Of a stretch of 39,432 bases of DNA, positions 2,339 to 29,354 are shown piece after piece. The translations under genes were made by a program, and so were the position numbers. The stretch's first letter is position 1, and each line of letters starts with the position of its first letter. The stretch comes from a virus (lineage: Duplodnaviria > Heunggongvirae > Uroviricota > Caudoviricetes). The notes under the pieces were generated by a model. That model was not told the origin of the DNA. It saw only the letters and a program-made list of their open reading frames with translations, and ran no database searches. Location: IMG/VR virus record IMGVR_UViG_2706794693_000007. One strand, given 5' to 3'.

Positions 2339-4393
2339 ATGTCAGACTCCAAGTGGAAAATGCTCTCCGCCATGCCCGGAGAGTTTTCAGTCAAGGTTGC
2401 CGGTGGCACGGTGGCATTTATTGAAAGCCCTTTCCGCCCTTCGGGTAATAAAGGGGGGATCACCTTCGCAGACTGCGTGATCCGCTTCAGCACGAAAGAG
2501 CCATTATGGGTAATGCCGGTATCCGGTAATCCCAGTGCAGAAATCACCAGTTCAGGCGTGACTGGCATCATTCCAATCACATCTGACGTGGCCGGAACGC
2601 TCACGCCCTCCGACTGGAATGCACCGGATAACGCCGGGCCTTCCGGTAGCACGAATGGCAGCAGTTCAGAGCCGGAATATTACTTTGTTGTCATTCTCGC
2701 GGGTCAGTCAAATGGCATGGCCTACGGCGAGGGGCTGCCGTTACCGGATTCGTTTGACCGCCCGGACCCACGCATTAAGCAACTGGCACGCCGCAGTACG
2801 GTAACGCCCAACGGTACGTCGTGTACATACAACGACATCATTCCGGCAGACCACTGCCTGCATGATGTTCAGGATATGAGCGGGATAAACCACCCGAAAG
2901 CTGATCTGGCAAAAGGCCAGTACGGGACTGTCGGTCAGGGGTTGCATATTGCCAAAAAACTGCTTCCCTATATCCCACAGAATGCCGGGATACTTCTGGT
3001 GCCCTGTTGTCGTGGCGGGTCAGCATTCACCACTGGAGCCGACGGCTCATTCAGTGAGGCCAGCGGTGCTTCCGCTGATTCTTCACGCTGGGGGGCCGGT
3101 AAACCTCTGTATCAGGACCTGGTAAGCCGCACCAAAGTCGCGCTGGCGAAAAACCCGAAAAACAAACTTCTGGCTGTGGTCTGGATGCAGGGAGAGGCAG
3201 ACCTTGCCTCAGGAAGCCAGCAGCATAATAGTTTATTCACGGCCATGGTTCAGCAGTTCAGAACTGACCTGGCTCCGCTTGCTGCGCAGTGCGTGAGTGG
3301 AAATGCCACCACGGTGCCGTGGATTTGCGGTGATACCACGTATTACTGGAAAAACGCTGGCACCGATAAATATGAGGCAGTATACGGTGGCTACAAAGGC
3401 AAGGAAGCACAGAAAATTTTCTTTGTACCGTTCCTGACGGATGAGAATGGACAGAGCACGCCAACGAATGCTCCGGCGGAAGACCCGGATATTGTGGCTG
3501 TCGGGTATTACGGTGCAGCATCCCGAACCCAGGGCAGTTTTGTTTCGACACAGCGTGACAGCCATTTCAGCTCATGGGCACGCAGGGGCGTCATTTCAGA
3601 CCGTCTGGCCTCAGCTATTATGCTCCATGCAGGGCGCACGGCTGAACTGATGCGTGGGCAGACCGTGACACCACCGGATGAGAAGCCGTCACCTGATACA
3701 CCATCAAAACCGTCCACGCCACCCGCAGACACCACGACGATGAGTACGCTATTTGCTTACCGGGCATCTGAGTCTGAAGGACGGTTGACACCACAGGGTT
3801 GGGCTGCCGGAGGTGGCAAGGCTCAAATCGTGGATGATGCCGGAGCCAGCGGGGGTAAGGCAATGAAACTGACCAAGGAAACAGGAAGAGCCCCCTGGTA
3901 CCTTGAGCATGATGCTGGTAATGGTGCGGACCTGCTGGGTAAAGGTGGTCTTGTCAGTTGTCGTTTTAAACTCGATGGCGCGCTTACGGCTAATCAGTAC
4001 GCACTGGCGCTGTACTGGCCGGTTTCTGCCCTGCCGCAAGGGGTTACTCTGGAAGGAAATGCCGGTCATAACCTGCTGGCATCGTTCTACGTACAGAGCG
4101 ATGCCACAGACCTTAACGTGATGTATCACAAAGGAAACACGGCGCAGAACACGAAGCTGGGGTCATTCGGCGCATTTAATAACGAATGGCATACGCTGGG
4201 CTTCCGTTTTGCCGGTAACAACAGTATTGAGGTGACGCCGGTCATTGATGGTAAGGACGGGACACCATTCATGCTGTCGCAGTCTCCGGTCGGCACGTTT
4301 ACGGCAGACAAGTTGCGCGTGACCGATATCACTAAAAATGCGACTTACCCGGTACTGATTGACAGTATCGTGGTGGAAGTGAATAACGCGTAA
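2339..4393 (+). CDS. SASA-family (sialate O-acetylesterase-like, NanS-p-like) SGNH hydrolase with N-terminal domain, Pro/Thr-rich linker and C-terminal lectin-like domain
   Basis: 684 aa; motifs YYFVVILAGQSNGMAYGEG (GQSN block) and AVVWMQGEADL (WxQGE(S/A)D block); candidate Asp/His at RDSHFS; linker TPPDEKPSPDTPSKPSTPPADTTT; start codon uncertain (weak RBS). Confidence 0.6.
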   Translation: MSDSKWKMLSAMPGEFSVKVAGGTVAFIESPFRPSGNKGGITFADCVIRFSTKEPLWVMPVSGNPSAEITSSGVTGIIPITSDVAGTLTPSDWNAPDNAGPSGSTNGSSSEPEYYFVVILAGQSNGMAYGEGLPLPDSFDRPDPRIKQLARRSTVTPNGTSCTYNDIIPADHCLHDVQDMSGINHPKADLAKGQYGTVGQGLHIAKKLLPYIPQNAGILLVPCCRGGSAFTTGADGSFSEASGASADSSRWGAGKPLYQDLVSRTKVALAKNPKNKLLAVVWMQGEADLASGSQQHNSLFTAMVQQFRTDLAPLAAQCVSGNATTVPWICGDTTYYWKNAGTDKYEAVYGGYKGKEAQKIFFVPFLTDENGQSTPTNAPAEDPDIVAVGYYGAASRTQGSFVSTQRDSHFSSWARRGVISDRLASAIMLHAGRTAELMRGQTVTPPDEKPSPDTPSKPSTPPADTTTMSTLFAYRASESEGRLTPQGWAAGGGKAQIVDDAGASGGKAMKLTKETGRAPWYLEHDAGNGADLLGKGGLVSCRFKLDGALTANQYALALYWPVSALPQGVTLEGNAGHNLLASFYVQSDATDLNVMYHKGNTAQNTKLGSFGAFNNEWHTLGFRFAGNNSIEVTPVIDGKDGTPFMLSQSPVGTFTADKLRVTDITKNATYPVLIDSIVVEVNNA

Positions 4394-5177: not shown

Positions 5178-5471
5178 TTAGTCCGATTCACGCTTTTGTA
5201 GAATCGTTCCCAGAATGCTATACAGCTCATTAGCCTGTTGCTCCATCATTGAGACGGAGGCTATACGGTGCAAAGTGATTTCAGGAGGTGGCACACCTCC
5301 ATCTTCTTGCTGTGGAGGAAAAACATAAGATTTAATAAAAAAGTTGAAGCATATGAACTCTCCCGCACTCGAACTGTATTTGCAGGCATCTGAATAATCG
5401 GAAAAATAATCATTATAGATTTCCGCATTTTCAATCATTTTTCGATTTCTCGTCGTTACATGATTGTCCAT
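5178..5471 (-). CDS. Hypothetical 97-aa protein, convergent with the 84-aa gene
   Basis: RBS AAGAGG before ATG at 5471; AT-rich ORF with no recognisable motif. Confidence 0.5.
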   Translation of the reverse strand: MDNHVTTRNRKMIENAEIYNDYFSDYSDACKYSSSAGEFICFNFFIKSYVFPPQQEDGGVPPPEITLHRIASVSMMEQQANELYSILGTILQKRESD

Positions 5472-5594
5472 AGCAGCCTCTTACGCTGGCAATTAACCAA
5501 TTGACTTCTATAAATTAGTTGATTTGTTTGCTTTGCGGTATTCAAATGTACAATCATTCAGCACTTATGCGTTACAGCACCGTTTAAAATTAGT

Positions 5595-5680
5595 GATCAA
5601 ACTCATAAATTTTCGCTAATGACATTTCGTGTTATTTGTTGTATCAATTAAATAAATCAAATCGATCGTTTTTGTCGATC
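5595..5680. promoter_or_regulatory. Upstream regulatory region of com-mom with three GATC (Dam) sites
   Basis: GATC at 5595-5598, 5664-5667, 5677-5680, the last two inside near-direct repeats TCGATCG; Mu mom is known to be controlled through upstream Dam sites. Confidence 0.4.
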
Positions 5681-5727
5681 GATTGAGTGATAAAGATATC
5701 AACAACAAAGCAGGAGGTTATGCGGCC

Positions 5728-5928
5728 ATGTATCGAAACATACGGTGCCGACATTGTAACAAGCTACTGGCACGAGCCAGCTTCAGTTATCTGGAAGTTA
5801 AATGTCCGCGCTGTAAAACCCTCAATCAAATCACATCTCAGAGCGCCACAGAGCACCCCACATACACAAGGAAATCCTGTCGTGGGGAACAGAAAGCAAG
5901 TTACATCCCGTATCATCAGCACGCCTGA
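5728..5928 (+). CDS. com: Com-like zinc-finger translational activator of mom
   Basis: 66 aa; AGGAGG RBS 10 nt upstream; [14 protein letters not shown]...[10 protein letters not shown] with CxxC...CxxC; immediately precedes and overlaps mom as in Mu. Confidence 0.75.
5856..5887 (+). promoter_or_regulatory. Stem-loop sequestering the putative mom start codon (candidate Com target)
   Basis: CCCCAC (5856-5861) pairs with GTGGGG (5882-5887); the 20-nt loop contains AAGGA; GTG at 5882 is in the mom frame. Confidence 0.45.
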
Positions 5929-6619
5929 ACTTATTCACTATAACGACAATATCGTCGGTTATGGCTCCCGTGAGTTACGGGTTGAGACAATAAGTTGCTG
6001 GCTGGCCCGGCTGGTCGTCGTCAATAAACATTACAGCCATCGTTTCGTAAATAATTCCTACCTTCATCTGGGCATATTTTCAGAACGGGAGCTGGTTGGC
6101 GTAATGCAATGGGGTTATGCCCTTAATCCAAACAATGGTGCACGCGTCGTAACTGGCACGCAGAACCGCGAATATATGGAGCTTAACCGGTTATGGCTGC
6201 ATGACTGTATGCCGAGAAACTCCGAATCAAGGGCAATCAGTTACGCGCTCAAACTAATCAGACAACTTTATCCGCAGGTGCAGTGGGTTCAGTCGTTTGC
6301 AGATGAGCGTTGTGGCTGTCTTGGTGTCGTGTACCAGGCAAGCAATTTTGATTATGTAGGCAGTCATGAAACAACATTCTATGAACTTGATGGCGAGTGG
6401 TATCACGAGATTTGCAAGAATGCAATCAAACGAGGAGGACAGCGAGGTGAACATCTGCGGGCTAATATCGACAGAGCCAGTGTTCATAAATTCCGTCAGT
6501 TTCGTTACATCCGGTTTCTGGACAAGAGAGCCAGAAAACGCCTTAACACAAAGCTATTCAAAGTCCAGCCTTACCCAAAACCACAAACAGTTAAAACTGG
6601 TTTGAAAGAGAGTGAATGA
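5882..6619 (+). CDS. mom: Mom-like DNA adenine modification protein; start assigned to GTG 5882, uncertain
   Basis: Long ORF in the frame overlapping the 3' end of com; com-mom architecture, size about 245 aa; no ATG between com and residue ~130 so a non-ATG start is required. Confidence 0.65.
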
Positions 6620-6664
6620 ACGCTTAAAAACTCATTCTAAAACTCAAAAGAAAAGCGCCGATTT

Positions 6665-6681
6665 AGTATCAAATAAGTTGC
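6665..6681 (+). repeat. Prophage end-like repeat (GTATCAAATAAGTTGCG) just downstream of mom
   Basis: 17-nt near-match to GTATCAAATGAGTTGCC at 38755-38771 and to repeats at 38817 and 38902; preceded by GCCGATTT as at 38767. Confidence 0.45.
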
Positions 6682-6691
6682 GTATCGGCGT

Positions 6692-6893
6692 NNNNNNNNN
6701 NNNNNNNNNNNNNNNNNNNNNNNNNNNNNNNNNNNNNNNNNNNNNNNNNNNNNNNNNNNNNNNNNNNNNNNNNNNNNNNNNNNNNNNNNNNNNNNNNNNN
6801 NNNNNNNNNNNNNNNNNNNNNNNNNNNNNNNNNNNNNNNNNNNNNNNNNNNNNNNNNNNNNNNNNNNNNNNNNNNNNNNNNNNNNNNNNNNNN
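6692..6893. other. Run of 202 N (unresolved or masked)
   Basis: N characters in sequence. Confidence 0.95.
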
Positions 6894-14909: not shown

Positions 14910-15161
14910 NNNNNNNNNNNNNNNNNNNNNNNNNNNNNNNNNNNNNNNNNNNNNNNNNNNNNNNNNNNNNNNNNNNNNNNNNNNNNNNNNNNNNNNNNNN
15001 NNNNNNNNNNNNNNNNNNNNNNNNNNNNNNNNNNNNNNNNNNNNNNNNNNNNNNNNNNNNNNNNNNNNNNNNNNNNNNNNNNNNNNNNNNNNNNNNNNNN
15101 NNNNNNNNNNNNNNNNNNNNNNNNNNNNNNNNNNNNNNNNNNNNNNNNNNNNNNNNNNNNN
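14910..15161. other. Run of 252 N (unresolved or masked) spanning the end of the tail tube gene and the start of the chaperone gene
   Basis: N characters in sequence. Confidence 0.95.
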
Positions 15162-28931: not shown

Positions 28932-29354
28932 TCAGAAAAGCCGTGGCTGCGTGCGTTCCTGATGCAGGCGACGCTGGTTGCGGATAACGGAGTAAATCTG
29001 CGTCTCTGACATCTGGTAGTGGCGGCGCAGGGTTTCAATTTTTTCGCCCTGGCTCCAGCGGGAAAAAATTTCATTATTGCGCAGTTCGGTGAAAAGGGAT
29101 TCACCGACCGGGAGATAATAACCACGCCCGCCCATGTACCCGGCCTGTGCGGCTGCAACCTTACGGGCAAGCATTCCCGCCTGAGCAGGTTCAATCCCCT
29201 GACGGTGCAGTTCAGCACTGATCACATCAACCAGGTCCCGCAGCGTGCCGGGCCAGTTCTTTTTCAGCTCATCATCAGGAATATCATCCAGACGGTCAAT
29301 CAGCGCGTGCAGCTGTTCGCTGTCACCAAACATGCTCATCTGTGTTTCAGCCAT
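28932..29354 (-). CDS. Mor/C-family transcriptional activator of middle/late genes
   Basis: 140 aa; C-terminal HTH FSRWSQGEKIETLRRHYQMSETQIYSVIR; located between GemA-like gene and lysis genes. Confidence 0.75.
   Translation of the reverse strand: MAETQMSMFGDSEQLHALIDRLDDIPDDELKKNWPGTLRDLVDVISAELHRQGIEPAQAGMLARKVAAAQAGYMGGRGYYLPVGESLFTELRNNEIFSRWSQGEKIETLRRHYQMSETQIYSVIRNQRRLHQERTQPRLF

Follow-up and report, generated by a model that had tools for sequence, protein, structure and literature searches.

The com and mom genes

The window, as we call the whole 39,432-nt stretch of phage DNA analysed here, carries two overlapping genes on its plus strand. The first, com (5728–5928), runs from ATG 5728 to the TGA at 5926–5928 and encodes a 66-aa zinc-ribbon protein with four cysteines (C7, C10, C27 and C30); the second, mom (5882–6619), opens with a GUG codon and encodes the 245-aa Mom, a tRNA-Gly-dependent adenine-modifying GNAT enzyme. 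The overlap measures 47 nt (5882–5928), with mom in the +1 frame relative to com and the com stop codon 44 nt past the mom GUG; in phage Mu, too, com overlaps mom in another frame. A Shine-Dalgarno (SD) sequence for com, AGGAGG (5712–5717, plus strand), ends 10 nt before ATG 5728, and an equivalent GGAGG is kept in relatives.

Com matches the Pfam family Zn_ribbon_Com (PF10122; E=7.5e-13, above the gathering score) which, together with the overlap, bears out the original prediction of a Com-like zinc finger covering the start of mom. Its cysteines 7, 10, 27 and 30 align with C6, C9, C26 and C29 of Mu Com. A sequence search of the PDB with Com gave no match, and no NCBIfam model matches Com, Mom or the 97-aa ORF upstream. 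The PGAP label for Com in the complete genome L003 (6249–6449) is ‘DNA-binding transcriptional regulator’; Com is an RNA-binding translational activator.

Mom, in the form starting at the GTG, matches the Pfam family Mom (PF25680) with E=7.8e-78, the domain beginning at residue 31, and the Mu Mom crystal structure (PDB 8BV8) with E=2.4e-123. Published work on Mu Mom (241-aa numbering) names R111, S124, D149, R151, H58, Y59, W48, Y159 and W181 as essential or important. In our alignment the catalytic R111, S124, D149 and R151 correspond to R103, S116, D141 and R143 of the window Mom, all identical, and W40, H50, Y51, Y151 and W173 are likewise identical to their Mu equivalents. Mom transfers glycine from Gly-tRNA(Gly) to the N6 of adenine in double-stranded DNA (PMC13219725).

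Alignment with Mu com and mom, which the original prediction had proposed as a check, identifies the window module as a clear orthologue (Mom 78% and Com 45% identical). At the DNA level the window and Mu share ~72% identity over 5931–6579 (the com 3' end and most of mom), while the body of com and the region upstream gave no DNA-level alignment to Mu. The 1.2-kb com-mom region is 100% identical in at least 10 complete E. coli genomes, and is present, identical or at 90–100% identity, in 233 of the 5426 complete E. coli genomes. In the RefSeq annotation of one of the genomes with the identical region, the limits of Com and Mom map exactly to 5728–5928 and 5882–6619 (GTG start). Beyond the end of mom at 6619 comes right-end sequence. 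L003 and L002, in which the junction of prophage and host is annotated or visible, have the same order: the start of this sequence in the window (6620–6691, plus strand) is identical to L003 7141–7212, the remainder being masked (N, 6692–6893), and in L003 the prophage-host junction follows ~54 nt beyond 7212. The Mu com-mom operon is likewise found at the right end of its genome.

Judged by its sequence, the module is therefore an ordinary copy, carried by an E. coli Mu-like prophage, of the well-studied switch of phage Mu, where a small zinc-finger protein frees the GUG start of a toxic DNA-modifying enzyme from an RNA hairpin. We put the probability that this is the right-end com-mom operon of an Sp18-type Mu-like prophage, and that it most likely works as in Mu, at roughly 85%. 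Such a finding is already known and had been correctly read in the original prediction; for the window itself, the confirmation matters little. What it adds is that a widespread E. coli Mu-like prophage, seen in the 233 genomes above, has an intact and, by its predicted layout, tightly gated Mu-type Mom anti-restriction system.

The start codon of mom

The open frame that contains mom extends from 5687 to 6619, with GTG 5882 in frame. Upstream of this GTG the only in-frame start codons are ATG 5720 and GTG 5687, both before or at the com start. Initiation at either would yield a protein of 299–310 aa, the longest ORF, and a mechanically called ORF does span 5687–6619; the RefSeq Mu Mom likewise begins at an upstream ATG (241 aa). 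We nevertheless consider initiation at these codons exceedingly improbable. It would have mom overlap all of com, and ATG 5720 lies just 2 nt after the AGGAGG. Relatives with a 96–97% identical Mom carry an in-frame stop codon 84 nt 5' of the GTG with no intervening start codon, and in the L049 locus an in-frame stop lies only 6 nt upstream. The Pfam domain begins only at residue 31 of the GTG form, PGAP chooses GTG 5882, and loss of the first 10 residues, which turns Mu Mom into the GUG form, reportedly does it little harm; a construct of the same length has yielded crystals.

Downstream, the next in-frame start is the Met at residue 75 of the mom-frame translation, a poor candidate because initiation there would remove W40, H50 and Y51 (W48, H58 and Y59 in Mu). 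Near-identical com cassettes precede mom, C5 methylase and N6/N4 methylase genes, and each of these genes is in frame with the same GTG. GTG 5882 is thus well supported as the mom start: as the original prediction had it, this is the sole plausible start near the overlap. A better-conserved in-frame alternative was sought among the relatives and none exists, and PGAP and RefSeq make the same choice. The further claim that the mom product begins with a non-ATG codon also stands, though not as a peculiarity of this phage, since Mu mom itself starts at GUG.

These comparisons offer independent support for the GUG start of mom in general. The RefSeq Mu record still has Mom starting at the upstream ATG (241 aa; L001 628, NC_000929 35877), whereas the literature and the comparative data presented here place the start of Mu Mom at the GUG (231 aa; L001 658, NC_000929 35907).

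A predicted hairpin encloses the mom start codon

The mom GTG lies within a predicted hairpin (5856–5887, plus strand) formed by a 6-bp stem, a 20-nt loop and an inner helix in which the GG of the mom SD is paired. The stem arms are CCCCAC (5856–5861) and GTGGGG (5882–5887), the GTG being the first three bases of the 3' arm; the SD, AAGGA (5868–5872, plus strand), sits in the loop 9 nt before GTG 5882 and has a probability of being unpaired of 0.44. All three elements – stem, AAGGA in the loop, GTG in the 3' arm – are found where the original prediction had placed them. Only one match to CCCCAC-N8-26-GTGGGG exists in the window, as compared to 0.08 expected by chance, and relatives have purine-rich SDs at the same loop position.

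Mu carries catCCCACggagaaacattGTGGGaa at the equivalent position. Common to both are a CCCAC/GUGGG stem, a GUG in its 3' arm and an SD in the loop. The two differ in detail: the outer stem pair is U-A in Mu and C-G in the window, the loop has 11 nt in Mu but 20 nt and the inner helix in the window, and the SD is GGAG, 7 nt from the GUG, in Mu as compared to AAGGA at 9 nt in the window. The Mu hairpin is a translation-inhibition structure supported by enzymatic and chemical probing (PMC6483171).

The hairpin is part of the minimum free energy structure. Folded in isolation, its 36 nt reach −12.6 kcal/mol (z=−2.26; 8 of 200 shuffled sequences fold as well), while a fold of 81 nt shows no unusual stability overall (z=−0.76), so that global stability is uninformative here and it is the local hairpin that informs. 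In the ensemble computed for a 101-nt context, the probability of the GUG being unpaired is 0.00, and the codon is paired in essentially the whole ensemble in both the window and Mu. Folding predicts equivalent hairpins in Mu and in seven further lineages; the instability that would count against the hairpin was thus not encountered in any lineage examined.

All six stem pairs can form in each of the 19 aligned distinct sequences. Five of the six are invariant, and support from covariation is therefore thin: the sole compensatory change is in the outer pair, which turns from C-G to U-A in the Mu clade, probably in one event. The arms double as coding sequence, for the conserved Com residues E-H-P-T and for the very beginning of the downstream gene, and coding constraint may for that reason explain part of their conservation. 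Could the hairpin be nothing but a by-product of overlapping coding (the E-H-P-T tail of Com and the downstream V-G), with no regulatory role? The near absence of covariation and the weak z-score in the longer context would fit such an explanation. We find it highly improbable, as the 3' arm GUGGG(G/A) is retained before three unrelated protein families, and as loop length (11–20 nt across the aligned lineages) and loop sequence vary freely while the arms stay fixed, even where the downstream protein family changes. The switch of the outer pair is compensatory, the hairpins of two more distant com-mom lineages (L033 and L047), different as they are, again enclose the SD or an AUG, and the literature regards the probed Mu counterpart as a translation-inhibition structure.

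The more distant lineages deserve description in their own right. L033, L047 and L048 (~1440–1500) are without the CCCAC/GUGGG stem and have other hairpins directly after the GAG-rich com region. In L033 (1440–1495), which has an ATG start, GUCUCCG/CGGAGAC covers the SD; in L047 (1455–1500), CCAUC/GAUGG covers an in-frame AUG and part of a GGAG. Our Rfam scan of 5400–6700 yielded a sub-threshold chance match alone (IS102, E=0.59) and no curated com-mom leader family.

A putative Com site abuts the stem

Immediately 5' of the hairpin, and reaching into it, is a bipartite putative Com site, GAGCGCC-ACA-GAGCACC (5841–5857, plus strand). It consists of two copies of GAG(N)2CC, a motif obtained by SELEX with the zinc finger of H. 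sputorum Com (PMC6483171); the second of them extends into the stem, over its two outer C-G pairs. It is the sole match to the bipartite motif in the window even with one mismatch allowed. Such uniqueness proves little by itself, since ~2 matches would be expected by chance, and the argument is carried by position and conservation: GA(G/A)NNCC-N3-GAGCA(U)CC is kept in all 19 aligned lineages, and in Mu, as in the window, it abuts the stem. The short Com-binding hairpin proposed for Mu (an AUGC/GCAU stem with a 6-nt loop) has a mere 2-bp counterpart in the window.

When 5841–5857 is held single-stranded in the folding model, the ensemble energy goes up by ~7 kcal/mol, from −16.6 to −9.7 kcal/mol, and the 5' arm is left 78% unpaired. 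The GUG, in turn, re-pairs with CAC 5865–5867, and its probability of being unpaired reaches 0.07. These predictions support destabilisation of the hairpin upon occupancy of the motif; they do not demonstrate in silico the exposure of the GUG.

The published architecture of Mu com-mom comprises the Com zinc finger, the overlapping mom, the GUG in the 3' arm of the hairpin, an SD in its loop and GATC sites upstream (PMC6483171). The window arrangement matches it, and the window is a clear orthologue; the original reading of a mom initiation site that is opened by Com is consistent with both. By analogy with Mu, the switch would work as follows. A single transcript would bear com and mom. Com would be translated from its own strong SD, while mom would initially be silent because GUG 5882 is sequestered by pairing in the 3' arm and, within the loop, the GG of the mom SD is in part paired too. 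Com, as a four-Cys zinc-ribbon RNA-binding protein, would then bind the GAG(N)2CC repeats that abut and overlap the 5' arm, and the binding would destabilise the hairpin, so that ribosomes initiate at the GUG. Mom would modify adenines of the phage DNA with Gly-tRNA(Gly) as the donor and thereby protect it from restriction. Transcription would probably be gated by Dam methylation of two GATC sites in the dyad at 5661–5685, discussed below.

Alternatively, mom could be unlocked in cis, by ribosomes that translate com and melt the hairpin as they pass, with no need for Com binding. The geometry would allow it: the com ORF spans the whole of 5856–5887 and ends at 5928, and none of the mom, C5-methylase and N6/N4-methylase cassettes has lost the overlap. 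We nonetheless deem Com-independent unlocking quite unlikely, given that the Com recognition motif is conserved in two copies and that the conserved zinc-ribbon of Com (a Pfam domain with its four cysteines) would be superfluous for simple coupling. Wulczyn, Bolker and Kahmann reportedly established in 1989 that Mu Com activates mom translation in trans. Furthermore, Mu Com is an RNA-binding protein that recognises this very region (PMC6483171). Opening by Com is the reading we retain, and melting in cis and Com binding could act together.

The com cassette precedes different DNA-modification genes

The region that is conserved as a unit extends from 5619 to 5895 (plus strand) and comprises regulatory DNA, com, the hairpin, the start codon and the first few downstream codons. 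It shares 92.4% identity with L002 3001–3278, with unrelated sequence on both flanks. L002 is a Mu-like phage inserted in an Stx2c phage; its downstream gene encodes a C5 methylase, and the identity ends a few codons past the GTG. A search with the window's Com yielded 72 IMG/VR loci. All 72 have a CCCAC-N-GTGGG hairpin in the 3' part of com and a GTG in frame with the downstream gene, which encodes Mom in 28 of them, a C5 cytosine methylase (PF00145) in 9 and an N6/N4 methylase (PF01555) in 35. Fusion a few codons after the GTG is seen in L002 (3001–4316) and in L110–L120, L121–L155 and L157–L159. More distant Com homologues are followed by a D12 adenine methylase (PF02086); there the junction differs and the start codon is ATG.

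It is known from earlier work that Com homologues precede methyltransferases at the mom position: HI1522.1/HI1523 of FluMu, NMA1821 of Pnm1, Hia5 and ORF47/48 of B3 each pair a Com homologue directly with a DNA-modification gene, and Com sites have been proposed at the 5' end of the downstream gene in com-methyltransferase cassettes (PMC3299994). The window differs from FluMu, Pnm1, Hia5 and B3, which have a methyltransferase downstream, in encoding a true Mom; like them, its own close com relatives precede C5 and N6/N4 methylases. The comparison speaks for a com-hairpin unit that is exchanged as a cassette between different DNA-modification enzymes. The cassette would be useful for annotating the start codons of phage methylases, and as a compact protein-gated translational switch.

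GATC sites and the promoter region

Three GATC sites lie upstream of com, at 5595, 5664 and 5677, with no other GATC between 4451 and 8044. The original prediction had listed all three as part of the module, and all three are at the positions given; only 5664 and 5677, however, belong to the conserved block and are homologous to sites of Mu. These two are carried by a dyad, AATCGATCG-N7-CGATCGATT, with 9-bp arms (5661–5685). They are invariant in nine lineages including Mu, where they align with the pair nearest to com among its three clustered GATCs, and in Mu, as in the window, an upstream dyad contains the two sites. Of the related com loci, 69 of 72 have at least two GATCs within 110 nt upstream. 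The case for 5664 and 5677 lies in this conservation, since, counted across the window, GATCs lying close together in pairs are nothing unusual. The promoter-distal GATC of Mu has no counterpart in the window, so that Mu has three clustered sites and the window two. GATC 5595 (5595–5598), outside the conserved block, occurs in window-type relatives only (the window itself, L084 and L085) and is missing from L002-type relatives in which the com region is otherwise 92–97% identical. It is probably not part of the module.

The dyad would, by analogy with Mu, where it is bound by OxyR, act as a Dam-methylation-sensitive operator. The E. coli agn43/flu promoter is another that is sensitive to methylation through Dam and OxyR. 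The window shares with such promoters, Mu Pmom and agn43/flu, clustered GATCs in a dyad before a gene that is harmful if expressed in an untimely manner; it differs in having just two GATCs and a dyad, here a putative OxyR site, that appears to overlap the core promoter. The Mu positions of the GATCs, the OxyR footprint and the C site used in these comparisons were mapped by us onto the Mu sequence.

The geometry of the promoter region is not that of Mu. From the last GATC to the com ATG there are 51 nt in the window as compared to 79 nt in Mu, an interval shorter by ~28 bp. We looked in the window upstream region for the Mu sequence TTATGCCCCAATAACC, which we take to be the C-binding site, and for the T6 run of Mu; both are absent. 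Pmom of Mu also has a long spacer. Among the features of Mu com-mom that sequence and predicted structure can show, the window has all but the C-dependent promoter and one GATC of the trio, the Mu-type C-dependent Pmom architecture not being found there. In Mu, the T6 stretch lies in the Pmom spacer, and C gives a footprint over Pmom (PMC4461284). In sister lineages a TATACT or TATCAT hexamer follows the last GATC at 8–9 nt, a spacing that suggests an overlap of the dyad with the core promoter in these phages.

If so, the dyad would cover the −35 element and the spacer, the methylation state, or a protein bound there, would influence RNA polymerase directly, and activation by C as in Mu may not apply. 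We advance this tentatively, as a possibility with rather less than even odds. The short distance from the last GATC to the com ATG, the absence of TTATGCCCCAATAACC and the T6 run, and the good −10 hexamers of the sister lineages speak for it, as does the fact that the window itself offers weak −10 candidates only (TGATAAAGAT, 5688–5697). On the other side, a consensus scan of the plus strand passed no sigma-70-like promoter, and the two GATCs are homologous to the OxyR/Dam sites of Mu. A gene for a Mor/C-family activator is present at 28932–29354 in the adjacent Mu-like copy, and activator dependence therefore remains likely; a different activator site in the window is possible. The region upstream of com showed no resemblance to the lys promoter region in this adjacent copy.

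Taken together with the cassette junctions, this leads to a broader proposal, which is equally tentative: 5619–5895 may be a self-contained, portable ‘safety catch’ that recombines within the first codons with at least three unrelated kinds of DNA-modification gene (Mom, C5 methylase and N6/N4 methylase), and its Dam-sensitive dyad would lie on the core promoter, so that its transcriptional logic would differ from that of Mu. What is new beyond the Mu system is modest and consists of the exact boundaries of the cassette and the different promoter geometry.

Two side observations concern the GATC sites. Three of the 72 loci are without GATC within 110 nt upstream of com, and in L151 and L154 (region 1391–1503), variants with com and an N6/N4 methylase, the whole GATC cluster is deleted while the TATCAT and com are kept; such loci offer a possible natural experiment on what the GATCs do. 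We also considered the dyad as a terminator and rejected it: it scores as a weak terminator-like hairpin on the minus strand, at the chance rate.

Related mom loci and the surroundings of the module

Sp18 has been cited as encoding Mom and its regulators (PMC3299994). Sp18-type prophages, e.g. that of O157:H7 in RefSeq, have the same limits of Com and Mom including the GTG, and nothing of substance differs within the module; the difference from the window lies beyond the right end.

Mom homologues without com are found mid-contig in phage contigs of 40–50 kb; in L068, the one locus examined, mom lies between a Q antiterminator and a holin gene. In 5 of the 34 com-less loci, an intact tRNA-Gly(UCC) gene on the same strand is located just upstream of mom (L066 633–706, L068 1310–1384, L074 1306–1379, L077 1218–1291 and L081 1306–1379), ~120–210 nt from the mom match in four loci and ~190 nt in L066. 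No mention of tRNA-Gly beside mom was found in the main text of the paper on the Gly-tRNA(Gly) donor (PMC13219725). The com-less loci (L050–L083) have a conserved structured leader ~130 nt before the mom start (e.g. L050 1389–1492 and L059 1342–1475). Its elements are, in order, GGG(U/C)G, a GC-rich hairpin whose arms vary by lineage, (C/U)(A/G)CCC, GGUCAYGAGUAYA and UAUUGGAGUAC. Of the 4 pairs in a helix between a GUAC-type sequence and the SD region, 2 show compensatory changes; the leader has no Rfam match. It may represent a different, SD-sequestering control of mom.

In the window, com-mom and the right end (plus strand) converge on the N-terminal part of a tail-fibre gene (7275 to 6894, minus strand) that belongs to an oppositely oriented Mu-like prophage (6894 to ~39000), whereas in complete genomes (L003) the com-mom, tail-fibre and other genes are all on one strand. 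The com-mom/tail-fibre junction, which runs across the masked 6692–6893, is present in none of the 5426 complete E. coli genomes. Insertion of one Mu-like copy into another, an inversion or mis-assembly are possible explanations. The window has three runs of N: 1538–1750 (213 nt), 6692–6893 (202 nt) and 14910–15161 (252 nt). The first covers the expected inversion site beside a gin-like recombinase gene (1888–2253, truncated by the mask), and the second hides the prophage right end. Divergent from com is the 97-aa ORF (5178–5471, minus strand), for which no Pfam, PHROG or NCBIfam match was obtained; its segment varies between close relatives, and in L002 another small, Cys-rich ORF takes its place. 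The 684-aa protein encoded upstream (2339–4393, plus strand), between the recombinase gene and com, has SASA esterase and DUF6645 domains.
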